UHGV virus genome: UHGV-0127207 | Length of the DNA: 24,457 bases | Source of the DNA: a virus | Strand: one strand, 5' to 3' | Shown here: piece by piece, positions 1,666 to 16,646 of the stretch | How positions within the stretch are numbered: position 1 is the first letter of the stretch | How the letters are laid out: the number at the start of each line of letters is the position of its first letter | The notes under the pieces: generated by a model | What the model was told of the DNA's origin: nothing | Databases searched by the model: none | The model's input: only the letters and a program-made list of their open reading frames with translations | Program-made: the position numbers and the translations under genes

Positions 1666-2566
1666 CCGTTCCTCCGTTGGTTACGCTCCACTGCGTACAT
1701 GATGCCGCCTGTGTTTTGTTCAGGACCACATCCGCCAGCGGAGAAGCCAGTTCCACACGTTGAACACCCTCAACATGCAGAGCAGCAAAGATGGCGCTAC
1801 GGCGAATATCCCGACCAAGCCTCGTCTGGCTGGCAATGTACTTCTGCAGACTGGCTTTTGCCGCTGCCATTACCGGCTCTGCTTCCGGTCCCGGATAGAG
1901 AAAAATGGTGGCTTCCACGCGATACGGGATGATTTCTGCGCTGCGAACCGTAAGACGGTCAGCCACCGGGCGGACGTTCTCACTGTTCAGAGCTTTTTCC
2001 ACCACGTCCAGCAGGTCTTTTTCTGCAGTTCCATCGCCTTCGCGGCTAAGGACAGTCAGCACCACCTCTGCAGGTGCCGGGCTGGTTGCACTGGCATCCG
2101 CCACCCGACCGTCGGCGCTTCGGGCATGAAATTCATAAGCTGCAGTTGGCCCCGCAACTGAAAGCCCTTCAAAGGCTGCAGGCACACGCAGGCGTAACGC
2201 TTCATCGCTTTCCATCACAGCTGCAACGGGCGGCACAGCGTCATTATCAGCAGGCGTCACCGTCAGGCGTTTCACGTTGTAGTTGGCGGCGAGCTGGTCC
2301 AGATCGCCCCCTATGGCATAAGCCACCATCACCGCCTGCGCGGCTTCGTTAATGCGCTGGCGCAGAAGCAACTCACGGTAAGCATTCTCCTGCAACAATT
2401 TGGTGACGGGTTCAGATTCCAGCTCCAGCGTGCGGATCACTGCTTCCTGCTCATCTTTCGGATGAAGCGCCACAAATTCTGCCTTGCGTTCGGCAAGCAG
2501 CGTCTCAAAGTCCGGCACATCCACAATCTGCGGCGCAGGCAGCTGCGAAAGGTCAATCACTGCCAT
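1658..2566 (-). CDS. J: Baseplate assembly protein gpJ
   Basis: ORF 1658..2605; ATG at 2566 (MAVIDLSQLPAPQIVDVPDFETLL...) gives 302 aa as in P2 J; the upstream GTG at 2605 is the alternative start. Confidence 0.85.
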   Translation of the reverse strand: MAVIDLSQLPAPQIVDVPDFETLLAERKAEFVALHPKDEQEAVIRTLELESEPVTKLLQENAYRELLLRQRINEAAQAVMVAYAIGGDLDQLAANYNVKRLTVTPADNDAVPPVAAVMESDEALRLRVPAAFEGLSVAGPTAAYEFHARSADGRVADASATSPAPAEVVLTVLSREGDGTAEKDLLDVVEKALNSENVRPVADRLTVRSAEIIPYRVEATIFLYPGPEAEPVMAAAKASLQKYIASQTRLGRDIRRSAIFAALHVEGVQRVELASPLADVVLNKTQAASCTQWSVTNGGTDE

Positions 2567-2912
2567 TCTCTGCTCCTGTTGATACGGAAAGGGAAACAGG
2601 CACACCGTTATTACGCCGCCCGGTCAGCTCCACCACCATTGAACCGTCAAAATTGCTGTTAATGGTGATGGAATCCAGCGTCAGCCGTGGCTCCCAGCGA
2701 CTCAGCGCCACATACACTGCCGACATGACCTGCAGGCGTAATGCCGGATTTTGTGGCTGGTCTATCAGTGCCGACAGCAGGGAACCATATTCCCGACGGG
2801 CAATGCGGCTACCCTGCGGCGTCAGCAAAATGTCCCGCACCGACTGGCGCAGATGATCAATATCAGTAATGGCTTTACCGCTGGTATTGTTCATCCCGCT
2901 ATAAAGCGTCAT
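2553..2912 (-). CDS. W: Baseplate protein gpW
   Basis: 119 aa ORF between V and J; start overlaps V stop; size and position match P2 W. Confidence 0.85.
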   Translation of the reverse strand: MTLYSGMNNTSGKAITDIDHLRQSVRDILLTPQGSRIARREYGSLLSALIDQPQNPALRLQVMSAVYVALSRWEPRLTLDSITINSNFDGSMVVELTGRRNNGVPVSLSVSTGAENGSD

Positions 2913-3487
2913 ACCGGGCCTCCGGTTGTGTCGCCGCCTTTCAGGACGTCAGTATGCTGATGCGCATCAACCACGATCCCGTTAGAACTCATCGCTCCGC
3001 CGCCCTGGGTAACGCCACCATTGATCACCACTTCGCTGTTAATGCGCGTGCGGTCAGCCTCCAGTACAAACTCACTGGTTTTCATGGTGATGTTGTCAGC
3101 GGCCTCAATGACCATTGATTTGATGCCCCTGACATACCAGCGCCCGGTAGTGGGTTCGTATTCAAACCAGCCGCCGTCAGGATGTTCTGTCACGCAGGCG
3201 TCTGCCGACGTCGACGGTGGTGCGAACTGATTCGAATAGACAGCGGGCAGCGCAAAGGCAGTTTCCAGATTGCCGCCCAGACTCAGCAGCACCACCTGCT
3301 CACCTTCCGATGGTCGCCACCATGTGCGGGCATTCCCGGCACGCAGCGTCAGCCAGCTGATCCAGTTGGTTTCAAGCTCGCCCGTTTTCACCCGGCAAAG
3401 CCAGTTTTCCCGGTCCACTTCGGTGACTACACCAGTGCGGATCAGGTTGGTGATAAGGCGCATGATTTCGGTTAGTTGTGCGTTCAT
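2909..3487 (-). CDS. V: Baseplate spike/assembly protein gpV
   Basis: ORF 2909..3595; ATG at 3487 (MNAQLTEIMRLITNLIRTGVVTEVDRENWLCRV...) chosen as start; P2 gpV-like; first gene of the V-W-J-I-H operon. Confidence 0.85.
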   Translation of the reverse strand: MNAQLTEIMRLITNLIRTGVVTEVDRENWLCRVKTGELETNWISWLTLRAGNARTWWRPSEGEQVVLLSLGGNLETAFALPAVYSNQFAPPSTSADACVTEHPDGGWFEYEPTTGRWYVRGIKSMVIEAADNITMKTSEFVLEADRTRINSEVVINGGVTQGGGAMSSNGIVVDAHQHTDVLKGGDTTGGPV

Positions 3488-3582
3488 AGGGTTAGGTTGC
3501 ACGGACCTTGAATCTATGGCATCAATACGTCCTTGTGTGGTAAATGACACAAATACAATTCCAATCAAAGAAAGGTAAAAGA

Positions 3583-4113
3583 ATGAGCCATCCAATTGAT
3601 TATTACGCTATAGAAGAACACGCAAGAATAATTGAGCAATTATGCTGTTCATCTGAATTTTATTTACAGCGTATATATTCCACACAGAAAGTATATGATG
3701 GTTCTATAGTAACTGAATTTGAAATGGAGGAGTTATCGTACAACGGATGGTTGGAATATACCATTAGCAACAATCTTATTAGCCTTTGTACAAAACTACG
3801 AATTCTCCAAGACACTAGTGAACATGAGTGGAACCCAGATTACTCACCTGAGAAAGAAGCATTTGAAGAACATGAAAATATACTTTTTGTTATAGATGGT
3901 CATGTTAAAGATTCTATACGCGAATGCTGCAATAAAATTATTCACGCATTAAGTTTTGAGTTAACAAAAAAGACCGGCAAAAATGGAATAAAATATTGGG
4001 ACGGTTCTATTATTGCTTCTGGGGTTCAAAACAAAAAAAACTGGAAAATTAAAATAGACCTTTTCCCTTTTTGCCAAAGCATAAAAAGTTATTTAAGTTT
4101 ATTAAGAGCGTAA
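3583..4113 (+). CDS. Hypothetical protein of unknown function (moron inserted between tail genes S and V, opposite strand)
   Basis: ORF 3544..4113; ATG at 3583 preceded by AAAGG with 7 nt spacer; visibly A+T-rich; opposite orientation to all flanking structural genes; no motif I can recognise. Confidence 0.6.
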   Translation: MSHPIDYYAIEEHARIIEQLCCSSEFYLQRIYSTQKVYDGSIVTEFEMEELSYNGWLEYTISNNLISLCTKLRILQDTSEHEWNPDYSPEKEAFEEHENILFVIDGHVKDSIRECCNKIIHALSFELTKKTGKNGIKYWDGSIIASGVQNKKNWKIKIDLFPFCQSIKSYLSLLRA

Positions 4114-4118
4114 ACATT

Positions 4119-4571
4119 CTAATTTTTCATCAATAAATACTTTAAAAGTAAATCTCTTACTTCATTTTCAGTATGTTCATTTAAACCCAGCAATTTTCGG
4201 GATGGATACTTAATGACTCCCCCCTTTGGACTGACGCGATCGCGCAGACCGTAGTGATGAACACGGGCAATACGCTGTACCTTACCTTCAAACTGTACGC
4301 TGGCAGAATCCGCGCTGGCGGCAGTTCTCAGGTATTTTGTAGTGCGCAGCTTTGCAAACATCTGACGTTTGATGCGCCCCTTCTTGCTGCGTGCTGTTAC
4401 CCTGCGCGGCTCATAACTGCTGCCATCTGGATTGCGCTGCATCCTGATATTCTGCTGCTGTGTCCGGCGCAGTTCCTGCGCCAGCTGGCGCATCATTCGG
4501 CTTCTTGCGGCTGGTTCCAGATTCGCCAGCAAAGCACTCAGCCAGTCGTCCACCTTCTGCAGTTCAGCCAC
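4119..4571 (-). CDS. S: Tail completion protein gpS
   Basis: 150 aa ORF (MAELQKVDDWLSALLANLEPAARSRMMRQLAQELRR...), P2 gpS-like; overlaps R stop. Confidence 0.85.
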   Translation of the reverse strand: MAELQKVDDWLSALLANLEPAARSRMMRQLAQELRRTQQQNIRMQRNPDGSSYEPRRVTARSKKGRIKRQMFAKLRTTKYLRTAASADSASVQFEGKVQRIARVHHYGLRDRVSPKGGVIKYPSRKLLGLNEHTENEVRDLLLKYLLMKN

Positions 4572-5016
4572 GTTTCACCGTCCACATTTCTTCAGGTTCA
4601 TCGGGTTCCGCTACTGCTTCAACGCTCGACACACTTCCGTCAGTGCTGACCAGCACACGTTCCGTCAGTTGCAGGTTGAGGCTGATATCACAGACATCGT
4701 TGCGCAGAATATCCACCTCAAAGGTGAATAACTTTTCCCGTAACGCCGGATTATTGATGGCATCGGGCTGGTTATCACGCAGCCACAGCAAAACCGGGGC
4801 CATCAGCAGATTCTGGTCGCCGCTGAAATCCTCAATCACCACGTTGAGGGTATAACGGTACTCCCATGACATGGAGCTGGCCCCCGTGGCAACCAGCGAA
4901 CCGTTATCCACAAACAGATGCAGCTTATCCGGGTTATTGCGGACATAAGGCACTGCTTTATTGAGGGCGTGGCGCAGGGATTGTGGTTTGTTCACTGTTT
5001 CGCTCCTGACACGCAA
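4564..5016 (-). CDS. R: Tail completion protein gpR
   Basis: 150 aa ORF immediately after lysC; P2 gpR-like; conserved order lysC-R-S. Confidence 0.85.
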   Translation of the reverse strand: MRVRSETVNKPQSLRHALNKAVPYVRNNPDKLHLFVDNGSLVATGASSMSWEYRYTLNVVIEDFSGDQNLLMAPVLLWLRDNQPDAINNPALREKLFTFEVDILRNDVCDISLNLQLTERVLVSTDGSVSSVEAVAEPDEPEEMWTVKRG

Positions 5017-5248
5017 TAATCATGTCCACTTTGTCTGCACAGACCGCCCAGGCGGCCTCCGTTTCATCCAGCAATGCGTTCAGATCACCGTTAGTGCGCG
5101 GCGCTGCCTGCTCCAGCCGACACGGCGTCACTCGCGGACAACCACTGACGGTAAGCTGCACCTCCGGTGAGTGCCGGACGTTCCCGCAGCCGGATAATGT
5201 CAGCAGGCAAAGGAGTATCAGCCCAGCGGCGTAAATCCTCGTTCTCAC
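4958..5248 (-). CDS. lysC: Outer-membrane lipoprotein spanin (LysC/Rz1-like)
   Basis: 96 aa; N-terminal signal with lipobox LTLSGC; starts inside lysB in another frame and runs past its end, the classic overlapped spanin arrangement. Confidence 0.8.
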   Translation of the reverse strand: MRTRIYAAGLILLCLLTLSGCGNVRHSPEVQLTVSGCPRVTPCRLEQAAPRTNGDLNALLDETEAAWAVCADKVDMIIACQERNSEQTTIPAPRPQ

Positions 5249-5519
5249 GTTTCAGTTCCTCGATCCGGTGTTGTCGTTGTCTCAGCAGCGCGCTGGTCTG
5301 TTCTGCTTCGGCATAGAGCCGCGCCTGCTCCCGGTTATTGGTTTCAGCCAGAATGGACAGACTGATCAGCTGGCTATTTTTCTTCGTTAGTTCGTGCGCT
5401 TTACTTTTCAGCGCCGCGCGCTGCGTTTCGATGGTGTGGCTGGCATCAGCCAGCCGCCACATCTGCCAGCCCAGCGACGCCAGTAATAACGCCAGCACAA
5501 CCAGCAGCAACCGGTTCAT
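5091..5519 (-). CDS. lysB: Inner-membrane spanin (LysB/Rz-like)
   Basis: 142 aa; N-terminal hydrophobic segment LLLVVLALLLASLGW followed by charged coiled-coil-like region; contains the embedded lysC start. Confidence 0.8.
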   Translation of the reverse strand: MNRLLLVVLALLLASLGWQMWRLADASHTIETQRAALKSKAHELTKKNSQLISLSILAETNNREQARLYAEAEQTSALLRQRQHRIEELKRENEDLRRWADTPLPADIIRLRERPALTGGAAYRQWLSASDAVSAGAGSAAH

Positions 5520-5893
5520 GCTGCCACCTGTTGCGCCATCTGGTTACGAGTGATCCAGAAGGCAATAACGGTCAGCAGATAAAAGACCAGGGTAATGGCC
5601 CACCCCGTCCAGGCGAGACTTACGATAATCAGCAATCGCATCACCCAACTGATAAATACGTTTTCTTTTCGGGTAATTGTCTTCAGCAAAGATGCCCTTA
5701 ACTCCTGCCAGAGCGGGCCATTCTTAATTAACGCAGCCAGTGCTACCGGAATTACCGCCCATGTCAGCAAACAGGCTACCCAAACGCCGGACGCTGCCAG
5801 TACCGGAAAAATCCCCTGCGGATACACCATTGCTGCGATTAACAGCGCCATCCATAACATCAGAAACAGCCCGCTGATTACTTTCTTTTTCAT
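5516..5893 (-). CDS. lysA: LysA-like multi-pass membrane protein (lysis timing)
   Basis: ORF 5516..6004; ATG at 5893 (MKKKVISGLFLMLWMALLIAAMVYP...) taken as start, directly after the K stop at 5895; about four hydrophobic segments; position K-lysA-lysB as in P2. Confidence 0.7.
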   Translation of the reverse strand: MKKKVISGLFLMLWMALLIAAMVYPQGIFPVLAASGVWVACLLTWAVIPVALAALIKNGPLWQELRASLLKTITRKENVFISWVMRLLIIVSLAWTGWAITLVFYLLTVIAFWITRNQMAQQVAA

Positions 5894-5894
5894 T

Positions 5895-6407
5895 TCAGTT
5901 TGCTCCCTGTAAGCACCAGGCCATCTCCCGCGCACGGCGGTTATCCAGCCCCTGATTAAACACACCTTTAACATAAACCCAGCGCGGCAACTGTCGGCAC
6001 GCATCCGCCCAGAGCCGCTGATTGAGTAATTTCACCAGTGTGGAACTGCAGGCATTGCCCGTTCCCACGTTGAAGGCAAACGACACCACCGCGTCATACA
6101 CCTTTTGCGGCGGCTGTTGCTTCACACACCTTTCCAGTGCCCGCTCCACACGCAGCACGTTGGAAATCAGCCCTTCTGCTGCCTGTCGTTCCGTGATTGT
6201 TTTGCCGGGAATGACGCCCGATGTATTACCAATGCCGTCGGTCCAGACACCTGCACTGCACTGATACGGCTGCAGACGGCAGCCTTCGTAATCGGCAATT
6301 AGTTTCAGCCCCTCCACGGAGGTGTGAAGCTGCTGAAAACCCGGCAACGTAGCTGCAATAGCCAGCACGGCCCCGACAAGGCAGCGTTTAACGATTGATG
6401 GATTCAT
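5895..6407 (-). CDS. K: Endolysin (T4-lysozyme-like muramidase) with possible N-terminal signal-anchor-release segment
   Basis: 170 aa; weakly hydrophobic Gly/Ala-rich N-terminus KRCLVGAVLAIAATLPGF followed by catalytic-type motif EGLKLIADYEGCRLQPYQCSAGVWTDGIGNT; start preceded by GGGAGGA. Confidence 0.85.
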   Translation of the reverse strand: MNPSIVKRCLVGAVLAIAATLPGFQQLHTSVEGLKLIADYEGCRLQPYQCSAGVWTDGIGNTSGVIPGKTITERQAAEGLISNVLRVERALERCVKQQPPQKVYDAVVSFAFNVGTGNACSSTLVKLLNQRLWADACRQLPRWVYVKGVFNQGLDNRRAREMAWCLQGAN

Positions 6408-6603
6408 AGTCCTCCCGCGAGATCTGCCCGTCGCGCAGAAGCTGGTAGGCTTTATGTTTGTAGTACCAGTTGATAGCCAGCATCAGCACACCAATCATCA
6501 GGCCGCCCAGCGTTGAGGCATCCTTGATGGACAAATCGCCCAGCCAGGCCAGCACGACGGCGATGCAATACGTGATAAAGGCGCTGATTCGCTCAAGCGT
6601 CAT
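6388..6603 (-). CDS. Y: Holin (two transmembrane segments, class II / pinholin-like)
   Basis: 71 aa; two hydrophobic segments ISAFITYCIAVVLAWL and LGGLMIGVLMLAINWYY with charged C-terminus; sits directly upstream of and overlapping the endolysin. Confidence 0.75.
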   Translation of the reverse strand: MTLERISAFITYCIAVVLAWLGDLSIKDASTLGGLMIGVLMLAINWYYKHKAYQLLRDGQISREDYESINR

Positions 6604-6606
6604 AAT

Positions 6607-6810
6607 TCAGTCCCATAGCTGGACGGTCTGCACGGTGGTGGTGGTCGGAATGTCCGGCAGCTCCACCTGCAGCCCGTGAGGTAAAAAGGGGCCGTATTCG
6701 GCAAGCCCCGGATTTGCCTTCAGTACCTGCTCCGTGACACCCTGCGTGCGCCCGTAATGACGCCAGCAAAGTGCGTCCACCGTGTCATACTGATGCGCAC
6801 GCACTTTCAT
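6607..6810 (-). CDS. X: Tail protein gpX
   Basis: 67 aa (MKVRAHQYDTVDALCWRHYGRTQGVTEQVLKANPGLAEYGPFLPHGLQVELPD...), same length and position as P2 gpX. Confidence 0.85.
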   Translation of the reverse strand: MKVRAHQYDTVDALCWRHYGRTQGVTEQVLKANPGLAEYGPFLPHGLQVELPDIPTTTTVQTVQLWD

Positions 6811-7337
6811 CAGATAAGCTCCACTGTGCAGTGCGGCGCATCCTGCACCCGGCTGATGGCCCAGCGGGCGTCACGCCATAAATCACCGCTTGCTTCCGCC
6901 AGTTCCTCGCCTCGCTTCGCACCGGATGCCGTGGCGTCATAGTCCTGGTAACGTTCGTTGAGCATGGCGCGTGCCCAGCAGTAAACCGCGTTGAAATAGT
7001 GCTGAATGCGCTCGCTTTTGCCGTCCAGTTGTTCCGCCGGGACTTCTGCCAGCGAGGCATACCCCAGCATCTGCTGGCGTCTGCGAAACTCATACAGCTC
7101 TGCGTTGACCTCCGAAATTGCCGACAGCGCAACCTGCTTTAAACGCGGCTGCGTCACCGTGCCGTCAGTGCGCATGACACTGCGAAACTCCGACAGGTCC
7201 ACATCAGGCCAGAACGGCGTATTTCTGATGATTTCCGCCTGTTCCGGTGCCTGTTCTGGCGCAACAAACTTCATGCTGCTTTCTCCTGAAATAGAGGGCG
7301 GTGGACGGGGTTTTGATGTGGCAGTGCCTTTCGCCAC
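6810..7337 (-). CDS. L: Head completion/stabilisation protein gpL
   Basis: 175 aa ORF downstream of M; P2 gpL-like. Confidence 0.85.
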   Translation of the reverse strand: MAKGTATSKPRPPPSISGESSMKFVAPEQAPEQAEIIRNTPFWPDVDLSEFRSVMRTDGTVTQPRLKQVALSAISEVNAELYEFRRRQQMLGYASLAEVPAEQLDGKSERIQHYFNAVYCWARAMLNERYQDYDATASGAKRGEELAEASGDLWRDARWAISRVQDAPHCTVELI

Positions 7338-7369
7338 CCCGTGCCGCCCGTGCGCGGGGGCACGTTCTG

Positions 7370-8020
7370 TCAGCGGCTGTCATTGCGCAGTCTGCGCTCC
7401 AGCTGCTGTTTGTCTTTTTTCACGCCACAGCGGGGATCGAGCTGTAACGCATGGTTGAGATGATTAAGGGCAGACGCCGGATTGCCTTCACTCAGGACCG
7501 CGCCAATCGCTTTATGCAGACGCGCCCGTGACTGATCCGGCATATCCAGACCGTCTGTCAGCTCCAGCGTCTGTAGCAACAGATCGGCATCAAAGCCGGT
7601 GGCGGCAAGCATTGCGCTCTGCGCCGCGTCTGCCATTTCCTCTGCCAGCACGGTCTGCACGTTGCGGTTACCCAGCGGCATCACCCACCCATGACGCAGG
7701 GCATGACGCCCAATCTCCAGCGCCCCGGCATAATCTCCGGCATCAATGCGCCACAGCATCACGTACATCAGCACGTCATCCTGTTGAGCTCCTCCGGCAG
7801 CCAGGACGCCCTCCGCCCAGGCGGCATATTTCGGCAGCAGCTCCACCTTGATTTCCGCTTTTTTCACCGTGGACTGAACGCCCTTGAGACGGCGGCGGTC
7901 TTCCGCCAGTTGCAGCAGCATCAGGTCATAGCCCGATGCGTGGCGAACACTGCCGCCCTCACGGGCGGCCTGTTCAGCCTGAACGCGCAGGCGATGCTGC
8001 CGTGCGGGACTCAGGCTCAT
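7370..8020 (-). CDS. M: Terminase small (endonuclease) subunit gpM
   Basis: 216 aa ORF directly downstream of capsid gene N; P2 gpM-like. Confidence 0.85.
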   Translation of the reverse strand: MSLSPARQHRLRVQAEQAAREGGSVRHASGYDLMLLQLAEDRRRLKGVQSTVKKAEIKVELLPKYAAWAEGVLAAGGAQQDDVLMYVMLWRIDAGDYAGALEIGRHALRHGWVMPLGNRNVQTVLAEEMADAAQSAMLAATGFDADLLLQTLELTDGLDMPDQSRARLHKAIGAVLSEGNPASALNHLNHALQLDPRCGVKKDKQQLERRLRNDSR

Positions 8021-8023
8021 GGA

Positions 8024-9082
8024 TTACGCTCCGGTTTCGGCTGCGGCGGCGCTGAAATCACCAATCTGGATGTTTTCCACCAGTGCGGCGCAGCGGTAGT
8101 CCTCAACCACATAGGCTTCATTAACGGATTCAAAGTTTTCAATCCGGTCACGTTTCGGGTTGTCGATAACTGAACGGCGGCGGGTGTCTTCCTGCCAGTA
8201 GATGGACAGGTTATCCAGACGGGTGATCAGCAGTGCATTCGGCGGGAAGAACGGCGCACGCACGGCCTGCAGGCCACCCATGCGTTTCTGACTGATGATC
8301 ATATCGGCAGCGAGTTTTTCACTGTTTTCCTGCTCTTTGTTGACCAGCGGGAAATACTTGTCAGACAGCAGTTCACGACCGCAAATCACCACCAGATCGT
8401 CATCGTCCTGGTAGACCACGTCGATAAGCTCATTAACGGCATCCATCACCACGGCGTCCAGGTTGGCATATTCGCCACCTTTACCGACTTTCACCGCGCC
8501 CGGTGTGGTTTCACCGCCCGTGGTGGTGCTGCCCATGACGTGATCCGGTGCATCCTCACGGATTTTCTGCAGCCAGCCTTTGTTTACATCCTGCAGCAGC
8601 GGGTTTTCACTACGGTTGGAGGTTTTCGCACGCTTCACGCCGTTAAAGCCGATCATGATGCGGTCCAGTGCCTGACGTTTCACGATGGCGTCACGGATAC
8701 GCACCTGGAAATCCTGAAACTTCGCCCACAGGTCCAGCTTCGCGTAGGTCAGCACCGTGTCAAAGTTGGTCTGCTCGCATTTATATTCCACATCGACCAT
8801 CAGCGTCGGATCGACAGGTTCACGCTCTTTCGCGGTGGTGTCAGTGGTTCCGGCAATGGTGCTGCCAACACCCAGCCCCAGCAGCTGACCGGACTGCTCA
8901 GTCACTGGCGTGACGTTAATCAGCGTCAGGAAAGCGGCGGACTGCTGGATCTGGTCTTCCAGCGTCTGCTGCACAGACGGCTCCACAGTGAATTTGCTGG
9001 ACAGTTCTTCAACTGCCACACCATTCAGACGCGCCAGCTGCTGCAGGTAAGCGTTAAAAGCAAAGCGGGTATTCTTCTTCAT
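8024..9082 (-). CDS. N: Major capsid protein gpN
   Basis: 352 aa (MKKNTRFAFNAYLQQLARLNGVAVEELSSKFTVEPSVQQTLEDQIQ...), P2 gpN-like; follows scaffold gene O. Confidence 0.9.
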   Translation of the reverse strand: MKKNTRFAFNAYLQQLARLNGVAVEELSSKFTVEPSVQQTLEDQIQQSAAFLTLINVTPVTEQSGQLLGLGVGSTIAGTTDTTAKEREPVDPTLMVDVEYKCEQTNFDTVLTYAKLDLWAKFQDFQVRIRDAIVKRQALDRIMIGFNGVKRAKTSNRSENPLLQDVNKGWLQKIREDAPDHVMGSTTTGGETTPGAVKVGKGGEYANLDAVVMDAVNELIDVVYQDDDDLVVICGRELLSDKYFPLVNKEQENSEKLAADMIISQKRMGGLQAVRAPFFPPNALLITRLDNLSIYWQEDTRRRSVIDNPKRDRIENFESVNEAYVVEDYRCAALVENIQIGDFSAAAAETGA

Positions 9083-9098
9083 CGGGTTTTGTGCTCCA

Positions 9099-9932
9099 TC
9101 AGCAATTGGTCAGAGTGTCAGCGGGGGCGTTACCGCCTGTTGCACGCTGGCGGTAGTCCTGGCGGCTGTCTTCATGACTCAGCTTGTCCACCAGTTCGTT
9201 AAAGGCGGTCTGCTGTGCCTGCAGGGCAGTCTCCAGCTCAGACAGACGTTCTTCCTGCTCAGACAGGGATTTTTCGGTGTGTGCGCTCAGGTTCTGCTGC
9301 TCAGTGGCGACCAGCTCCACGGCCTTATGCACATCAGAGAACCGGGCGTCATCGGACTGCTCTTTTTTGGTAAACAGCGCCGTGACGCGGGCAAACAGGG
9401 ACGGTTTGTCGTCCTGGATTTCTTCCAGTTCGATCACCGTTTCCTCTGCAGCGGTAAAGAGATTGGCAGGATTCTGCTTGCGGTTTGCCAGCGGGTTATG
9501 GGCTGCACTGGCGCTGAATGTCAGCATTTCCGTACCCAGACTGGCAGGGTCATCAGTGGCAGCCAGGCCGACCAGGTAGGCTTTGCCCGTATCAGCGAAC
9601 TTCGGGCTGACTTCCATAGATGTGAATAATTTCTGGCCTTTTTTCACCAGTTCCACCAGGGACTCCGTTGGCTCAACGTCGGCATACAGCGCCATCTTGC
9701 CTGCCAGCGGACCTTCCGTGATTTCTTCAGCAAACAGCGCCGTCACCTTGCCGTAGCGGTTAAAGGTGCTGTCCGGCAGATAAGACTTGATGTGCTCAAG
9801 GTTAATCAGCGCGGTATACACCGCCGGGTTGTAGCTGGCTGCCATCTGTTCCAGCCATTCACGCTGGATTTCGCGTCCATCGGTGGTGGCACCTTCCACC
9901 CCGATGCGAAAACGCTTTGCTTTCACTGTCAT
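9099..9932 (-). CDS. O: Capsid scaffolding protein gpO
   Basis: 277 aa (MTVKAKRFRIGVEGATTDGREIQREWLEQMAASYNPAVYTALINLEHI...TLTNC), P2 gpO-like; divergent from P. Confidence 0.9.
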   Translation of the reverse strand: MTVKAKRFRIGVEGATTDGREIQREWLEQMAASYNPAVYTALINLEHIKSYLPDSTFNRYGKVTALFAEEITEGPLAGKMALYADVEPTESLVELVKKGQKLFTSMEVSPKFADTGKAYLVGLAATDDPASLGTEMLTFSASAAHNPLANRKQNPANLFTAAEETVIELEEIQDDKPSLFARVTALFTKKEQSDDARFSDVHKAVELVATEQQNLSAHTEKSLSEQEERLSELETALQAQQTAFNELVDKLSHEDSRQDYRQRATGGNAPADTLTNC

Positions 9933-10010
9933 GAGCCGTGCTCCGTTAGAAAAAACTTACTGGAGCCTTATGGTTGCGGTGATGGGGGCAGTGAAACAAT
10001 GCGCAGTATT

Positions 10011-10028
10011 TGTACCGACAACCACACA
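10011..10028. promoter_or_regulatory. Candidate late-activator (Ogr/B/Delta-type) binding dyad TGT-N12-ACA in the divergent O/P promoter region
   Basis: TGTACCGACAACCACACA in the 142-bp gap between the O and P starts; about 87 bp upstream of the O start codon, so more likely serving the O promoter. Confidence 0.4.
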
Positions 10029-10074
10029 AACCGCAGGCGGGGAAAGCCTTCATTCAAGGCTGTAGGTTTGTGCC

Positions 10075-11841
10075 ATGAACACCACACTGACACCCGCAGA
10101 TCTCGATCCCCGTCGGCAGGCCATGCTGCTGTACTTTCAGGGATACCGCGTCGCCCGCATTGCTGAAATGCTGGGCGAGAAAGTTGCAACCGTTCACAGC
10201 TGGAAAAAACGCGACAAGTGGGGTGACTATGGGCCGCTGGATCAGATGCAGCTCACCACCGCCGCACGCTACTGCCAGCTCATTATGAAGGAGCACAAAG
10301 AAGGGAAAGATTTCAAAGAGATTGACCTGCTGGCGCGCCAGTCTGAGCGCCACGCGCGGATCGGCAAGTTTAACAATGGCGGTAACGAAGCCGACTTAAA
10401 CCCTAACGTCGCCAACCGCAACAAAGGCCCGCGCCGTCAGCCGGAAAAGAACGTTTTCACCGATGAACAAATTGAGAAGCTGGAAGAAATCTTCCACTCC
10501 TCCATGTTCAACTACCAGCGCCACTGGTGGGAAGCCGGAAAAACCAACCGCATCCGCAACCTGCTGAAGTCACGCCAGATCGGCGCGACCTTTTACTTTG
10601 CCCGTGAAGCCCTGATTGACGCCCTGCTGACCGGACGTAACCAGATTTTCCTTTCCGCCAGTAAGGCACAGGCCCACGTCTTTAAGCAGTACATCATCGA
10701 CTTCGCCAAAGAAGTGGAGGTGGAGCTGAAAGGCGATCCGATGGTGCTTCCTAACGGGGCCACGCTTTACTTCCTCGGCACCAATGCCCGCACAGCCCAG
10801 AGTTATCACGGTAACCTGTATCTGGATGAATATTTCTGGATACCGAAATTCCAGGAGCTGCGCAAAGTGGCTTCCGGTATGGCTATTCACAAAAAATGGC
10901 GACAAACCTATTTTTCCACGCCATCCAGCCTGACCCACAGTGCTTATCCGTTCTGGTCCGGTGCGCTGTTCAACCGTGGACGCAACAAAGCCGACAAGGT
11001 GGACATCGACCTGTCCCACAGCAATCTGGCCCCCGGCCTGCTGTGCGCAGACGGGCAGTACCGCCAGATAGTCACTGTGGAAGATGCGGTGCGCGGCGGC
11101 TGCAACTTGTTCGACCTCGACCAGTTACGCATGGAATACAGCCCGGATGAATACCAGAACCTGCTGATGTGTGAGTTCGTGGACGATCTCGCGTCCGTGT
11201 TCCCGCTCAGCGAGCTGCAGGGGTGCATGGTGGACAGCTGGGAAGTCTGGACCGACTTTCATGCACTGGCGCTGCGCCCGTTTGGCTGGCGCGAAGTGTG
11301 GATCGGTTATGACCCGGCAAAAGGTACGCAAAACGGCGACAGCGCCGGGTGCGTGGTGGTGGCACCGCCAGCCGTGCCGGGCGGTAAGTTCCGCATTCTT
11401 GAGCGTCACCAGTGGCGCGGAATGGACTTCCGCGCCCAGGCTGACGCCATCAAAAAACTGACCGAACAGTACAACGTGACCTACATCGGCATCGACTCAA
11501 CCGGCGTCGGTCACGGGGTTTACGAGAACGTGAAAGCGTTCTTTCCTGCCGTCCGGGAGTTTGTCTATAACCCCAACGTTAAAAACGCCCTGGTACTCAA
11601 GGCCTACGACATTATCAGCCACCGCCGTCTGGAGTTTGACGCCGGGCACACCGACATTGCGCAGTCATTTATGGCAATCCGTCGCGCCACCACCGCCAGC
11701 GGCAACCGCCCGACCTATGAAGCCAGCCGCAGCGAAGAAGCCAGCCATGCCGATCTGGCCTGGGCAACAATGCACGCACTGTTTAACGAACCGCTGCAGG
11801 GCGAGTCCGCCAATACCAGCAATATTGTGGAGATTTTTTGA
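10075..11841 (+). CDS. P: Terminase large (ATPase) subunit gpP
   Basis: 588 aa (MNTTLTPADLDPRRQAMLLYFQGYRVARIAEMLGEKVATVHSWKKRDKWGDYG...), P2 gpP-like; followed by and overlapping Q. Confidence 0.9.
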   Translation: MNTTLTPADLDPRRQAMLLYFQGYRVARIAEMLGEKVATVHSWKKRDKWGDYGPLDQMQLTTAARYCQLIMKEHKEGKDFKEIDLLARQSERHARIGKFNNGGNEADLNPNVANRNKGPRRQPEKNVFTDEQIEKLEEIFHSSMFNYQRHWWEAGKTNRIRNLLKSRQIGATFYFAREALIDALLTGRNQIFLSASKAQAHVFKQYIIDFAKEVEVELKGDPMVLPNGATLYFLGTNARTAQSYHGNLYLDEYFWIPKFQELRKVASGMAIHKKWRQTYFSTPSSLTHSAYPFWSGALFNRGRNKADKVDIDLSHSNLAPGLLCADGQYRQIVTVEDAVRGGCNLFDLDQLRMEYSPDEYQNLLMCEFVDDLASVFPLSELQGCMVDSWEVWTDFHALALRPFGWREVWIGYDPAKGTQNGDSAGCVVVAPPAVPGGKFRILERHQWRGMDFRAQADAIKKLTEQYNVTYIGIDSTGVGHGVYENVKAFFPAVREFVYNPNVKNALVLKAYDIISHRRLEFDAGHTDIAQSFMAIRRATTASGNRPTYEASRSEEASHADLAWATMHALFNEPLQGESANTSNIVEIF

Positions 11842-12875
11842 TGGGAAAGAGTAAGAAGAACCGCGCTGCGGCGACGAAACAGATCCAGCATAAAAACCAG
11901 ACTTCAGCCGAAGCATTCAGCTTCGGCGATCCCGTTCCGGTTCTGGACCGCCGTGAACTACTGGACTATGTGGAATGCGTACAGACAGATCGCTGGTATG
12001 AGCCGCCAGTGAGTTTTGACGGACTGGCGCGAACCTTCCGCGCTGCCGTACATCATAGCTCCCCGATTGCAGTAAAGTGCAACATTCTGACCAGTACCTA
12101 CATCCCTCACCCGCTGCTCAGCCAGCAGGCTTTTTCACGTTTTGTGCAGGACTATCTGGTATTTGGTAACGCCTATCTGGAGAAACGCACGAACCGCTTC
12201 GGTGAGGTTATCGCCCTTGAGCCTGCTCTGGCAAAATACACCCGACGCGGGTTAGACCTGGATACCTACTGGTTTGTGCAATACGGTATGACAACCCAGC
12301 CGTATCAGTTCACGAAAGGCAGCATTTTTCATCTGATGGAACCGGATATTAATCAGGAGATCTACGGCCTGCCCGGCTATCTTTCTGCCATTCCGTCAGC
12401 CCTGCTCAACGAATCCGCCACGCTGTTCCGCCGCAAGTATTACATTAACGGTAGTCATGCAGGCTTCATCATGTACATGACCGATGCCGCGCAGAACCAG
12501 GAGGATGTGAACAACCTCCGCAAGGCAATGAAAAGTGCTAAAGGACCGGGCAACTTCCGCAACCTGTTTATGTACTCGCCTAACGGCAAAAAAGACGGCC
12601 TTCAGATCATTCCTCTGTCAGAAGTCGCGGCGAAGGATGAGTTTTTGAATATCAAAAATGTTAGTCGCGATGACATGATGGCGGCACACCGCGTGCCGCC
12701 GCAGATGATGGGGATTATGCCTAATAATGTTGGGGGATTTGGGGATGTTGAGAAGGCGGCGCGTGTTTTCGTACGCAACGAACTTACACCACTCCAAGGC
12801 CGCGTGATAGAAATTAACGAGTGGCTGGATGATGAAGTGATTCGCTTTAACCCATACCTGACTGAGGAAGATTAA
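11838..12875 (+). CDS. Q: Portal (capsid vertex) protein gpQ
   Basis: 345 aa; start overlaps P stop; P2 gpQ-like length and position. Confidence 0.9.
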   Translation: MMGKSKKNRAAATKQIQHKNQTSAEAFSFGDPVPVLDRRELLDYVECVQTDRWYEPPVSFDGLARTFRAAVHHSSPIAVKCNILTSTYIPHPLLSQQAFSRFVQDYLVFGNAYLEKRTNRFGEVIALEPALAKYTRRGLDLDTYWFVQYGMTTQPYQFTKGSIFHLMEPDINQEIYGLPGYLSAIPSALLNESATLFRRKYYINGSHAGFIMYMTDAAQNQEDVNNLRKAMKSAKGPGNFRNLFMYSPNGKKDGLQIIPLSEVAAKDEFLNIKNVSRDDMMAAHRVPPQMMGIMPNNVGGFGDVEKAARVFVRNELTPLQGRVIEINEWLDDEVIRFNPYLTEED

Positions 12876-12961
12876 CGCTCACCTGACCTATCCTTCATAT
12901 CAACCGCTCTTCCTGGGGCGGTTTTACCCCCACTTCAATAGACGGTTTAGGGATGACAATC

Positions 12962-12982
12962 AAAACGCTCCTAAGAGCGTTT
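12962..12982. terminator. Candidate bidirectional hairpin terminator between convergent Q and the accessory operon
   Basis: AAACGCTC-CTAA-GAGCGTTT inverted repeat with T-rich stretches on both strands; the stop codon of the 239-aa gene lies in the loop. Confidence 0.35.
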
Positions 12983-13690
12983 CTGTTTACGGTTTGACTC
13001 TATTTGTTTTTTTAGCTGGATAAGCCTTTCAACTAACTCAAACACTTTTGTACTTGGATTATCAGTATCGCTAGCTTCAGCAGCCTGTAAACTTCTCTTA
13101 GCCCTAAGGACTACTTCATTTAAATCTTTTGACTCTAAAGCGTTTAGGGTTTTCTGAAAAATCCCTTTTGAGCCTTTCTCATAGTCCTTAATATATTTTC
13201 TTAACTCATTTACAATTTGATTTCCTGAACTATTACCAGGTAAATTTCTAAATGCCTTTGTCGAATAGGTATAATGTAGAAGTAACCAATATTCAAAACA
13301 AGGTACTGAATTCACAGTAAACCAAGTTGAGCTTGGTTTACTTCTCCTGATAGCGTCAAGCGCTGCCATGTAATCAGAGTGGGCATCCTTATCAATCACT
13401 ACAAAGATTTGATCATAAGGAGCCCCCTGTTCAGTCATTTTTTTATGCTGTGCTTTTGCATGACGAACAACACACATAGGACTAGAGCCACATTCTCCAG
13501 TTACATCAATTACACTTGCTGTAAGTAATTCAAAATGATTTATCAAATCCTCAAAGTAATTTGGTTCAGTTTTTTTACCCTCACAAACAATTAATATTTT
13601 AGCGAGAGGGGATTTTATTGCATTACGTCTTGCTAGATCCTTAGCCGTTTTAGGGGCACGTTTCTTTTTGAATAAATCCTCGCTTCCCAT
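12971..13690 (-). CDS. TOPRIM-like protein (RloB/AbiLii-type or DUF4435/AriB-type), second gene of a candidate anti-phage pair
   Basis: 239 aa; N-terminal ILIVCEGKKTEPNYF and downstream VVIDKDAHSD consistent with a TOPRIM E...DxD core; A+T-rich; starts 1 nt after the upstream ATPase gene stops. Confidence 0.6.
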   Translation of the reverse strand: MGSEDLFKKKRAPKTAKDLARRNAIKSPLAKILIVCEGKKTEPNYFEDLINHFELLTASVIDVTGECGSSPMCVVRHAKAQHKKMTEQGAPYDQIFVVIDKDAHSDYMAALDAIRRSKPSSTWFTVNSVPCFEYWLLLHYTYSTKAFRNLPGNSSGNQIVNELRKYIKDYEKGSKGIFQKTLNALESKDLNEVVLRAKRSLQAAEASDTDNPSTKVFELVERLIQLKKQIESNRKQKRS

Positions 13691-13691
13691 A

Positions 13692-14957
13692 TCAAATCCC
13701 CGTCAATTTCTTGATGAACGGCAATGCTCCATACCGACCGTCTAGGTATGCGGCTTCTAAATTTTCTCTTCCTTTCCTTGGACTAAAATCAGTCAATGGA
13801 TATAGATTAGTTTCACTGAGTTCATTTTTCTCACAAAACCAAACTTGATCACGTCTAAAAATGCTTTGATTCAGAATGGATGTTTCATGTGTTGAGAAAA
13901 TTAACTGCGCACCTTTTTTATTAGTAACCGGACTATTAAAAAGATTTACCAAGAAACTAACCAACTTTGGATGCAATGTATCGTGAAGCTCGTCGATTAA
14001 TAGTACATATCCATTATCGAGCGCATCTAACCATGGACCAGCTAAAGAAAAAAGCTTTTGAGTGCCATGAGATTCCTCTTCAAGAGAAAAACTTACCGGC
14101 TCACCTTTATCGTTATAATGGACAGTAGTAACATCAAAAACTTCTTTATCCTTCATATTAGAAATAACGATTTTTTTGATATCATCTGGCATATCAGATG
14201 GCAAATCATCTGGATTAAATTTTTCTTTCTTAACTAAAACATCATCAATGCCAATATCTGCAGCTTGCAAAAAATTCAAGATATCTTTCTTCATATCCTC
14301 GGTGCAGCGTTTAGCGGAGAATGTATTAGCCCATCCATTAATTCCAGAAAGTCTCAGTGTTTTTTTAAACCAAGTAAAAACAGGCTTAAGCTGCTCGCTA
14401 TTTAATTGAACAGCTGTAGACAAGAACAGGGCATTATTTCTAGTTGAACGCTGCCAAACTTGTTTTTCACCAAGTAGTGATGCGCCAAAATCCCAATCAT
14501 ATTCCTGCTTCTCTTCATCCCAAGCTCTGAAATACCACTTTTGAGGCCTTCCTTTTGGGTACGCAAAGAGCCATTCATCAATAATTCTTTCATTTGTAGC
14601 AGAAAAACCAAATTGATACCGGGTGCCCTCTGCAATAAAAGTAACTTCAAATTCAGTAGGTTTTTTAATTGAATCTGAATCAAGCTTGAAGGGGAATACG
14701 GGAACCTCTTCACCAGCCTGAGAGTTAGATGCAGAGTGGATAACTAAATCCATCATAGCCCTGACAGCCAGAAGTACATTCGACTTGCCCGCTGCATTCG
14801 CACCGTAAATAACAGCTGACTTTAGAACATTAAGGTTAACGTTTCCCTCTACTGTAAAGATATTCTCTTTTAACTCGTTACTTTTGTTAGCAATAAGTGA
14901 AAGTGTTTGTTTGTTTTTGATTGAGAGATAGTTCTCAACATTGAATTCAATAAGCAT
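13692..14957 (-). CDS. ABC/SMC-like P-loop ATPase (AAA_15/AAA_21-type), first gene of a candidate anti-phage pair
   Basis: 421 aa; Walker A GANAAGKSN, Walker B VLLIDELHD, H-loop-like FSTHET; strong RBS AGGAGGG before the ATG; A+T-rich. Confidence 0.7.
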   Translation of the reverse strand: MLIEFNVENYLSIKNKQTLSLIANKSNELKENIFTVEGNVNLNVLKSAVIYGANAAGKSNVLLAVRAMMDLVIHSASNSQAGEEVPVFPFKLDSDSIKKPTEFEVTFIAEGTRYQFGFSATNERIIDEWLFAYPKGRPQKWYFRAWDEEKQEYDWDFGASLLGEKQVWQRSTRNNALFLSTAVQLNSEQLKPVFTWFKKTLRLSGINGWANTFSAKRCTEDMKKDILNFLQAADIGIDDVLVKKEKFNPDDLPSDMPDDIKKIVISNMKDKEVFDVTTVHYNDKGEPVSFSLEEESHGTQKLFSLAGPWLDALDNGYVLLIDELHDTLHPKLVSFLVNLFNSPVTNKKGAQLIFSTHETSILNQSIFRRDQVWFCEKNELSETNLYPLTDFSPRKGRENLEAAYLDGRYGALPFIKKLTGI

Positions 14958-15135
14958 TTTTACCCTCCTGGTGGTTGAATAATCTTAGTTGCAAAAGCAA
15001 CAAACGTCACCAACAACCAAATCTTAAGGCATTTTATGACAAAAAACGTCAAAATGGTACTCATAAAATGAATTTAAACCAGTTTATTAGACTTAACATC
15101 TAATATTTACGGCTAGCTTTCGCCCTGAACGCGCG

Positions 15136-15154
15136 CTCGTATCCCCGCCACGCC
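15136..15154 (-). other. Candidate cos (cohesive end) site of the phage genome
   Basis: Minus strand reads GGCGTGGCGGGGATACGAG; the first 13 nt match my recollection of the 186/P2 19-nt cohesive end (GGCG(T/A)GGCGGGGAAAGCA(T/C)); G+C-rich motif in a non-coding A+T-rich stretch. Confidence 0.35.
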
Positions 15155-15533
15155 TGCCCGCTTTATGCAGTGGTTTTCATGCACATGCATGACATGAGCA
15201 AAAGCCCGCCAGTTCTGGCGGATCTGAGCAAAGACGATCCTCAATCGATCATGCGATTTCATGCAGCATAGTCATGCACTGTCAAGGAAGTGAAAATCCG
15301 TATCTGAATGGCCACTTGAAAAACGGATCATACGGGTTTACAAAGATGAATGTTCGCTGTGAACGGGAAGCGGAAGTTAGCTTTCAGATAACATAATCCA
15401 TATGCACGAGAACCTCTAAAATAGAATGGGACACCTAAGCGGGGTACTTACAACGATTCTTTCCAGATTCACAGTTAACACTCTGTTTGGCGTATTTTTA
15501 TTCAAATAGCAAACACCAATAAAAGGAGTTTCC

Positions 15534-15869
15534 ATGAACAATATTCCCCCTATACCACAGTTAGGAATTTATGTCTCAAAAATCGATCCCACCCTACGTA
15601 TCACTGTAACCGATGTTGATATTGTTGATGGTGAGGATGATTCTCCTGATGATGAGTTGTTTTATTTAGTCCACTGGATCGAGGGGGAAGATGAAAGTGA
15701 TATGACAGCAATGGGATTTGAGCTAGACCCAGTAGAGTGGCAGGCTTTCGTTGAATCTGAGCAATTAGTGTTTGAGCGTGATCCGTACATGGATTCAATC
15801 CCCGAAAATTCAAACTTGGCAAAGATTCGGGATTTTCTCATGAAGACTAAACAGAATGATCATTCGTAA
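15534..15869 (+). CDS. Small strongly acidic protein of unknown function (candidate DNA-mimic / anti-restriction)
   Basis: 111 aa; strong RBS AAAAGGAG before the ATG; about 26 Asp/Glu against about 7 Lys/Arg by hand count, including runs DGEDDSPDDE and EGEDESD; A+T-rich; opposite strand to flanking genes. Confidence 0.6.
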   Translation: MNNIPPIPQLGIYVSKIDPTLRITVTDVDIVDGEDDSPDDELFYLVHWIEGEDESDMTAMGFELDPVEWQAFVESEQLVFERDPYMDSIPENSNLAKIRDFLMKTKQNDHS

Positions 15870-16061
15870 GTGTAAGCATCCATCAGGAAAATGGTTTTGT
15901 AAGTGAATCATCAACTTTTAGAGAGTCTCAGACACTCCCACTTCTGCTTCTGACACAAAGCGGACGATCACTTATCAAAATAACCGCCCACCTTACGCCT
16001 TATTTCACTCATTGCCCAAACTAGCCCCCATCAGAATGAATCCTCCTGGGGGCAACGTTTC

Positions 16062-16295
16062 TTAATGCAGCCAGCTGTCGTCCTCCCACACCTTCTGCAT
16101 AATTTTCATCACTTGTTTTCTTTCTTCATCCAGTTGCAGTCCGGTTAGTTCCACACCGTTAGAGCTACCTTTGCGAATGCGAATTACCGTTTTGGGATAC
16201 AGGGGGCGCAGATTGCGGTAAAGCTCGGATTCAAGGGCGTCCAGGGTAGACTGGCTAATCTTCTGCTCTTTATCGATCATTATTTCAATGCGCAT
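16062..16295 (-). CDS. dinI: DinI-family protein (DNA damage-inducible protein I homologue)
   Basis: ORF 16062..16367; ATG at 16295 preceded by GAGGTGA gives 77 aa MRIEIMIDKEQKISQSTLDALESELYRNLRPLYPKTVIRIRKGSSNGVELTGLQLDEERKQVMKIMQKVWEDDSWLH, alignable to E. coli DinI (MRIEVTIAK...ELSRR...ETWESADDWF). Confidence 0.8.
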   Translation of the reverse strand: MRIEIMIDKEQKISQSTLDALESELYRNLRPLYPKTVIRIRKGSSNGVELTGLQLDEERKQVMKIMQKVWEDDSWLH

Positions 16296-16305
16296 AAAAG
16301 TCACC

Positions 16306-16494
16306 TCAGCTGATGACATCCATTGAGCGGTTGTATTCGTGGCTTCTGATTTTTGCCATGAGTTCATCAGTCAATTCAGAAACCCACTGCAGAGCCAGCC
16401 CCTTCTCTTCATCACTACACTCACTAGCCGCTACAAGCTTAAGAAAAAAATCAATGCGCTGGAGCTTCAAAGACTCCAAAAAATAGTCCTGCAT
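16306..16494 (-). CDS. Small SOS-controlled protein, candidate antirepressor (Tum-like role)
   Basis: 62 aa; strong RBS AGGAGG; first gene after the LexA box and directly upstream of dinI; functional assignment is inference from context only. Confidence 0.45.
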   Translation of the reverse strand: MQDYFLESLKLQRIDFFLKLVAASECSDEEKGLALQWVSELTDELMAKIRSHEYNRSMDVIS

Positions 16495-16521
16495 CTTTCC
16501 TCCTATGACACCACAACAATA

Positions 16522-16552
16522 CTGTATATATAACCACTGTTTATATTTACAG
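16522..16552. promoter_or_regulatory. LexA operator (SOS box) with overlapping degenerate second box, in the promoter of the small ORF-dinI operon
   Basis: CTGTTTATATTTACAG at 16537-16552 fits CTGT-N8-ACAG; overlapping CTGTATATATAACCAC at 16522-16537 is a partial box; about 45 bp upstream of the 62-aa ORF start; TTTACA -35-like hexamer further upstream on the minus strand. Confidence 0.7.
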
Positions 16553-16646
16553 TATATAATAATCTTACTGATGTAAAACGTTTTTTTACGTTCATCGGCC
16601 TGATATGCCTGGTATTATTAAGAGCACGAATTGTTAACCCGCGTAA

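Follow-up and report, generated by a model that had tools for sequence, protein, structure and literature searches.

The UHGV virus genome UHGV-0127207, a stretch of 24,457 nucleotides (hereafter the window), carries a single cargo gene (3583-4113, plus strand) between the P2-type tail genes V and S, both of which lie on the minus strand. Here we report that its product, a soluble acidic protein of 176 residues (20.6 kDa, isoelectric point 5.4), belongs to a widespread family of stand-alone proteins that is undescribed in every library searched and that is built around a nearly invariant R-x3-N-K-x2-H motif. Tentatively, we favor the reading that the cargo protein is a divergent HEPN-like (DUF4145-type), metal-independent ribonuclease (RNase) serving as a single-gene abortive-infection or defense effector, which would entail RNase chemistry, dimerization, phage-triggered activation and an anti-phage phenotype.

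The cargo protein returned no match in Pfam, NCBIfam or PADLOC, including none in PADLOC-DB 2.0 at E-values up to 10, and an earlier note on this DNA had likewise called it unrecognized. In PHROGs it matched phrog_18838 ("unknown function") end to end (E = 6.6e-127), an entry without functional annotation in which membership means that the protein is seen in phage genomes and no more. Our search for literature on the gene's accessions and locus tags found no paper. A word-indexed search yielded 16 clusters of relatives, an exhaustive profile search of 1.84 billion representatives yielded 381 clusters (50% identity) at E ≤ 0.001, and a profile search of a 5.8-billion-protein set yielded 1930 clusters (90% identity). 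Nearly all members are 175-205 residues long, all are labeled "hypothetical" and none has a Pfam domain; their hosts include Vibrio, Photobacterium, Aliivibrio, Aeromonas, Burkholderia, Clostridia, a Dokdonia metagenome-assembled genome (MAG) and an archaeal MAG. A contig scan with a narrow alignment recovered one locus, in the Dokdonia MAG. When evaluating 12 contexts outside P2-like phages, we observed that the family gene was solitary and had no conserved neighbor; in one context it adjoined an integrase and a filamentous prophage (Zot, RstB, Rep), and in another it lay near an AlpA element. The idea of a partner gene, whether antitoxin or sensor, was dropped, as none was conserved across the contexts examined. 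In Aeromonas caviae (positions 2287-12009 of locus L011), a member with 40% identity is flanked on one side by an integrase-bearing element and on the other by a filamentous prophage (Zot, DUF2523, RstB, Rep_trans), and because of this context the family also travels with elements of non-tailed phages.

Modeling of the cargo protein with AlphaFold2 from a 17-sequence alignment gave a predicted local distance difference test (pLDDT) score of 90.5 and a predicted template-modeling (pTM) score of 0.86. The model consists, in order, of helices at residues 7-21, 24-34, 45-78 (long) and 89-95, a strand at 101-105, a helix at 112-120, three strands spanning 124-159 and a helix at 160-175. Mapping the conservation among 91 diverse members onto this order placed the most telling residues in two segments. 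The candidate catalytic site is R-E-C-C-N-K-I-I-H-A (codons 113-122; 3919-3948, plus strand), whose core reads [LI]-[ST]-[LI]-R-E-x-C-N-K-I-I-H-A across members and in which R113 was retained in 85 of the 91, E114 in 71, C116 in 77, N117 in 90, K118 in 88 and H121 in 90. A second conserved polar pair, R73 (90/91) and D77 (82/91), lies in R-I-L-Q-D (codons 73-77; 3799-3813, plus strand) at the C-terminal end of the long helix 45-78 in the model. Together with G147 and W154, the residues R73, D77, R113, N117, K118 and H121 each occur in 82 to 90 of the 91 members. Because polar residues are so strictly conserved in a set with a mean column identity of 17%, the alignment points to a probable active site rather than a binding surface. 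We considered a Cys-His-Asp protease-like triad and rejected it, as C116 is replaced in 14 of the 91 members and N117, K118 and H121 are not.

Three features characterize HEPN domains: helix 3 ends in an Rx4-6H motif, helix 2 bears a conserved acidic residue, and the domains take up variable inserts, which in Csx1 include a beta-hairpin directly after the motif (PMC3710099). The structures listed in our HEPN comparison were 1wwp, 1jog, 1ylm and two ANT(4') aminoglycoside nucleotidyltransferases whose C-terminal domain is of the HEPN type. The cargo motif sits on a short helix that ends at H121, with a polar residue following R113. Judged from the model, the placement of the motif at a short-helix end, the conserved acidic residue in the preceding helix and the surrounding inserts would all agree with this description of HEPN domains. 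Stand-alone HEPN abortive-infection proteins and toxins (AbiD/F, AbiV, AbiU2, HepT and RnlA) share with the cargo protein a helical core, a conserved Arg/His pair with a polar residue between, and the acidic residue in the preceding helix, and they are frequent on prophages and plasmids (PMC3710099). They differ from it in their Rx4-6H spacing, where the cargo protein has Rx7H, and the cargo protein has no antitoxin or partner gene.

The spacing of the cargo motif recurs in RAZR (PD-T7-4), a defense RNase with a DUF4145 "divergent HEPN" domain in which R146 and H154, also arranged as Rx7H, are essential for defense (PMC13017515). The RAZR sequence in PDB 9y9c reads CRIVGNQAVH, that is R-x3-N-x3-H, with the same spacing as RECCNKIIH in the cargo protein, and plasmid DUF4145 proteins carry the same motif as RSLGNIGAH. 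Both RAZR, at about 200 residues, and the cargo protein are single-gene modules, and both have a conserved arginine about 40 residues upstream in the preceding helix; in RAZR itself this family-wide arginine lies one residue further off (41 versus 40). For comparison we used zinc-ribbon-DUF4145 proteins from plasmids, confirmed by Pfam and PADLOC, and collected and aligned their relatives; bona fide DUF4145 members scored 2e-9 to 1e-12 against Pfam and 2e-14 to 4e-17 against PADLOC. In an ungapped profile test, the offset of +52 ranked first of 155 for residues 45-122, and at this offset the three conserved blocks ranked 4th, 1st and 2nd of 220. A model of a RAZR-like protein showed the same order as the cargo model, with helix 2, a short insert helix, the motif and a final helix. 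By analogy, the cargo protein plausibly works like a DUF4145-type HEPN RNase, although membership of the superfamily is not demonstrated. One RAZR-like DUF4145 gene of an Acinetobacter plasmid (p3_010034; positions 1-2955 of locus L020) lies between a Fic-family gene and an Abi_2 (AbiD/F-type HEPN) gene, a trio that forms a small defense cluster on this 13-kb plasmid.

The cargo gene itself is an uninterrupted open reading frame of 176 codons that begins MSHPIDYYAIEEHARIIEQL, and its product is identical to Cartapus gp14 (LF82_RS13640). An alternative in-frame ATG at 3544 would extend the protein to 189 residues; we took 3583 as the start codon because the MSHPI N-terminus is kept across the family and the Salmonella orthologue begins there with TTG. 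The window matches the annotated Escherichia phage Cartapus (NC_070909), a P2-like prophage of Escherichia coli LF82, at 99.9% identity over 1701 bp, and because of this near-identity the flanking genes could be assigned as V and S. To the left lies the gpV baseplate spike gene (2909-3487, minus strand), divergent from the cargo gene, annotated as such in Cartapus and LF82 and bearing Pfam Phage_base_V in orthologous loci. To the right lies the gpS tail-completion gene (4119-4571, minus strand; Cartapus annotation), which is convergent with the cargo gene, the two stop codons being 5 bp apart. The G+C content falls to 0.28-0.35 across 3500-4200 against 0.53-0.61 on either side; the cargo gene has 0.32 overall and 0.27 at third codon positions, compared with 0.57 and 0.65 for V. 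An AAAGG Shine-Dalgarno-like ribosome-binding site (3571-3575, plus strand) precedes the ATG by 7 nucleotides. These values bear out the earlier note's description of an A+T-rich, opposite-strand, single-gene insert with its own ribosome-binding site, as well as its statement that the protein lacks a transmembrane segment: the maximum Kyte-Doolittle mean over a 19-residue window was 0.88, leaving no hydrophobic stretch. The V-S insert is a horizontally acquired single gene of foreign composition.

Between the window and Salmonella, the ratio of nonsynonymous to synonymous substitution rates (dN/dS) was 0.09 for the cargo gene, 0.13-0.14 for V and 0.09-0.19 for S, so that the cargo gene is real and under purifying selection as tight as that on V and S. 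Orthologues in Salmonella (74% identity) and Enterobacter cloacae (60%) keep the V-cargo-S order, and diverged orthologues at this junction, including those of Salmonella and Enterobacter prophages, range from 58% to 84%. All 18 IMG/VR viral contigs recovered carry the gene between V and S (58-100% identity), and the reading frame is intact in these and in 22 genomes. One E. coli copy, the genome hit P0004 (QM042_16485, 149 residues), seems degraded: its N-terminus is truncated and the SIRECCNKIIHA motif is swapped for unrelated residues, consistent with frameshifts.

According to the earlier note, V comes directly after S in the gene order of P2. This does not hold: the P2 reference record lists "Orf30; nonessential", a protein of 261 residues, between S and V and on the strand opposite to both. 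Because P2 carries orf30 there, the V-S junction is a known cargo site rather than a new one, and it is near certain that the cargo gene occupies this orf30 site of P2-like prophages. We searched the V-to-S region in 5426 complete E. coli genomes and found the V-S backbone in 1040, of which 22 carry the cargo gene, always at the V-S junction, and about 98% lack it. In the comparison with related prophages that the earlier note had proposed, the junction was empty in most close relatives and held different cargo in others. In a spread sample of 60 records from the 1040 it was mostly empty; the other cargo comprised DUF6216, TIR_2-domain, FRG-domain and DUF2971 proteins and assorted hypothetical proteins, usually but not always encoded on the opposite strand. 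The DUF6216 protein occupies the junction in E. coli B derivatives, for example. P2 orf30 and this DUF6216 cargo resemble the cargo gene in position, strand and single-gene layout, whereas their products are longer (261-268 residues) and show hydrophobic segments in the alignment, unlike the soluble cargo protein. Sequence similarity to either was rejected, as BLASTP returned E-values of 0.22 and 5.5 for short spurious matches.

In phage 500465-1, whose site is empty, and in most of the 1040 E. coli genomes, the gap from V to S is about 68 bp. Blastn homology between the window and phage 500465-1 stops at 3500 and resumes at 4222, which defines a variable segment (3501-4221) of 721 bp, exchanged for 152 bp in that phage, that comprises the promoter region of V (pV), the cargo gene and the 3' end of S. 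The exchange therefore reaches beyond the cargo gene, into pV on one side and the final ~34 codons of S on the other. These S codons (4119-4221) are rich in A+T, and their sequence in cargo-bearing phages departs from that in empty-site phages, apart from a retained YP.R.LLG pattern. Because of this divergence, cargo exchange seems to recombine inside S, an essential tail gene, rather than in intergenic space. In a P2-like prophage of E. coli E2348/69 (positions 3053-8459 of locus L025), the V-W-J-I-tail-fiber block is inverted relative to R-S, S is truncated, and a 1155-bp hypothetical gene and a recombinase family gene adjoin V, which suggests an inversion that disrupted the S-V junction.

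To place the cargo gene in the prophage's transcriptional program, we drew on the LF82 RNA sequencing (RNA-seq) data of Misson et al. 2023 (PMC9928086, S1 Table; values are log2(fpkm+5), fpkm being fragments per kilobase per million), where it is listed as LF82_787/CARTA_14. It reached 5.1-6.0 in columns B1/B6 (culture, probably in Dulbecco's modified Eagle medium (DMEM); the column key is not confirmed) and 4.4-5.3 in columns MB1/MB6 (infected macrophages), and stood at 3.5 and 2.7 in column BLB (stationary phase in lysogeny broth (LB)) (PMC9928086). Most values for V and S of LF82 lay in the range 2.3-3.6, and V rose to 4.1-4.3 in MB6 only (PMC9928086). The RNA-seq table supports autonomous transcription: because LF82_787 is expressed while V and S are mostly silent, transcription of the cargo gene in the repressed prophage does not depend on the late tail operons. 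The gene is not to be equated with LF82_789, the "hypothetical" Cartapus moron of Misson et al., an identification that we rejected as LF82_789 is 10 kb away.

A promoter/terminator scan found neither a consensus sigma-70 promoter on the plus strand nor an intrinsic terminator for the cargo gene. Of the recognizable own promoter and terminator by which a moron is identified, the gene has a TACAAT -10-like hexamer alone (3554-3559, plus strand), a candidate for its own promoter. This hexamer comes after, on the plus strand, a TGTGT-N8-ACACA dyad (TGT-N12-ACA; 3534-3551) that we read as a putative Ogr-type site, at which the late activator would act on the V-operon promoter. The V start is about 55 bp downstream of the dyad center, the cargo ATG is 31 bp from the dyad, and the P2 record annotates an activator site upstream of V at the same relative position. 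From these sequence features we infer both the Ogr-type identity of the dyad and the location of the cargo promoter. An Rfam scan of 3300-4400 found no RNA families.

Several results weigh against a HEPN-like RNase. PDB sequence-profile searches with the cargo protein returned nothing relevant, and Foldseek searches of the model against PDB and BFVD gave no match at E ≤ 0.001. Neither the cargo protein nor its 91 relatives matched Pfam PF13643 (DUF4145), PADLOC PD-T7-4 or any Pfam family of the HEPN clan, and scans of the relatives against Pfam and PADLOC gave isolated chance matches alone. The R113-E114...H121 arrangement is Rx7H and falls outside the canonical Rx4-6H. Homology to RAZR-type DUF4145 by hhalign was not significant (probability 0.1%, E = 0.4-0.6) and was set aside; the non-significant best path aligned the motif arginine with R113, the motif asparagine with N117 and the RR of DUF4145 helix 2 with R73. 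In the ungapped profile test, a column-shuffle control reached the total score in ~10% of trials (P ~0.1). The cargo model has a beta-sheet of ~35 residues after the motif, which the RAZR-like model lacks and where RAZR-like proteins have a loop and a long helix. RAZR also has a zinc ribbon, unlike the cargo protein, in which we found no Cys4 zinc ribbon, the N-terminal 45 residues being two predicted helices without CxxC pairs. Distant homologues lie mostly amid housekeeping genes and not in recognizable defense islands. Finally, LF82_787 is near background in LB stationary phase and under the 5-fold cut-off that the LF82 authors applied to morons, which accounts for its absence from the list of Misson et al. 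(PMC9928086).

If the cargo protein does act as a HEPN-like RNase, two subunits would pair their R113-x3-N117-K118-x2-H121 helices, with R73 and D77 behind, into a composite active site that would stay inactive in the lysogen. A component of an infecting competitor phage would then switch this site on, and it could cut tRNA or mRNA such that translation halts before the invader finishes its cycle. We favored a role in defense because a TIR protein is among the alternative V-S cargo, because the gene is transcribed in the lysogen and because its enzyme-like invariant motif resembles that of a defense RNase. A related but rather improbable proposal is that the family represents a new, widespread group of stand-alone immune effectors with an alpha/beta fold of its own. 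Its catalytic helix (R-E-x-C-N-K-I-I-H) would be convergent with, or anciently diverged from, that of DUF4145/HEPN proteins; the beta-sheet module would serve to sense a phage component, and the effector would need no partner.

A defense or superinfection-exclusion moron need not involve HEPN chemistry. The cargo protein may instead have a fold of its own and act as a novel enzyme or binding protein, with its R/D/R/N/K/H constellation put to some other chemistry, for instance ligand binding or the modification of nucleotides or proteins. Such a protein would sit equally well in a hotspot that holds TIR and other alternative cargo and would be transcribed in the lysogen, and it would account for the fact that neither sequence nor fold searches gave a significant match to a known family and for an alpha/beta architecture with a four-stranded sheet in place of a plain HEPN bundle. 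Yet the form and spacing of the motif match the DUF4145 catalytic motif and nothing positive was found for any alternative chemistry, leaving this explanation possible but on the unlikely side. Doubtful to a slightly greater degree is the proposal that the gene is host-fitness or selfish cargo, for example a stress-responsive RNase, a toxin or a niche regulator, in a permissive prophage site. Its distant homologues do stand alone among housekeeping genes in Photobacterium, Bacteroidota-like and archaeal contigs, expression was higher in the B1/B6 (probably DMEM) and macrophage samples than in LB stationary phase, and P2-type hotspots also hold non-defense cargo (PMC9122126). The family's spread, however, is patchy and linked to mobile elements (P2-like prophages, a filamentous prophage with an integrase in Aeromonas, an AlpA element), a partner antitoxin is lacking, and each of the known conversion genes of P2 (old, tin and fun) excludes phages (established knowledge and PMC9122126).

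An anti-defense protein that disarms host immunity during phage infection or induction, one of the functions that the earlier note had suggested alongside superinfection exclusion and abortive infection, would suit a single small acidic protein in a phage hotspot, and a few P2-like prophages carry anti-restriction-modification or anti-CRISPR genes (PMC13586616). Against this, the ~1,900 clusters span bacteria and archaea, mostly outside phages and as a solitary chromosomal gene; the conserved polar residues are strict and enzyme-like; the lysogen transcribes the gene at a time when the late genes are off; and it sits between late operons rather than in an early one. We regard the chance of an anti-defense function as slim. 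Slimmer still is a tail-assembly or structural role, or a non-functional remnant reading frame, either of which might be supposed from a location between tail genes with a stop codon 5 bp from that of S. Comparative data effectively refute both: the gene is missing from ~98% of the E. coli prophages that share its V and S neighbors, lies on the opposite strand with foreign composition and has homologues outside phages, and it combines a dN/dS of 0.09 and a confident fold prediction with intact reading frames in 22 genomes and 18 viral contigs. The earlier note had named a conserved homologue with a structural role, or a silent or disrupted gene, as outcomes that would speak against cargo; no structural role attaches to the homologues at the junction, and relatives carry the gene intact and expressed.

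An A+T-rich moron at a recognized variable site of P2 is a known kind of element, and it is the protein family that is undescribed. P2-like prophages have proved to be a source of new anti-phage systems, and studies of their cargo focus on the gpA-gpQ (old/tin) and Z/fun hotspots (PMC13586616; bioRxiv 10.1101/2024.10.15.618418; PMC9122126). P2 old, tin and fun(Z) resemble the cargo gene in being non-essential cargo that acts from the prophage at fixed variable sites of P2-like phages (PMC9122126; bioRxiv 10.1101/2024.10.15.618418). They differ from it in location (gpA-gpQ and downstream of the tail-fiber genes), in encoding unrelated proteins and in having demonstrated anti-phage phenotypes. 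The S-V (orf30) site is scarcely explored by comparison, its type gene orf30 being still without a function, and the cargo gene draws attention to an under-explored hotspot, a result that would not astonish a specialist. At 531 bp, in the well-studied pathogen LF82 and kept in several enterobacterial genera, it is a tractable single-gene defense candidate, and it stands for ~1,900 clusters undescribed by domain databases with a sharply defined candidate active site. Should the HEPN-like reading be true, the superfamily would gain a highly divergent branch missed by sequence methods; if not, the protein may be a new type of effector. Should the family prove to be one of new immune effectors, the S-V (orf30) site would be a further reservoir of single-gene defenses.

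Elsewhere in the window, the main prophage hotspot downstream of the portal-side genes holds a two-gene AbiL-type defense system (12971-14957, minus strand) within an A+T-rich island (~12800-16800; G+C content 0.35-0.42). AbiLi is an AAA_21 ATPase of 421 residues (PADLOC E = 1e-100) and AbiLii a RloB-like protein of 239 residues (E = 2e-29), and because of this system the prophage carries defense cargo. Cartapus is annotated differently in the AbiL region, making the window a mosaic relative of Cartapus and not Cartapus itself. The lysis region (5516-6407) is also unlike that of Cartapus, in which the endolysin gene stands directly beside LysB. In the window a lysozyme reading frame (5895-6407) is followed by a second reading frame (5516-6004) that overlaps it by ~110 bp, an arrangement that resembles a Salmonella locus (L004) with an extra LysA-like gene.

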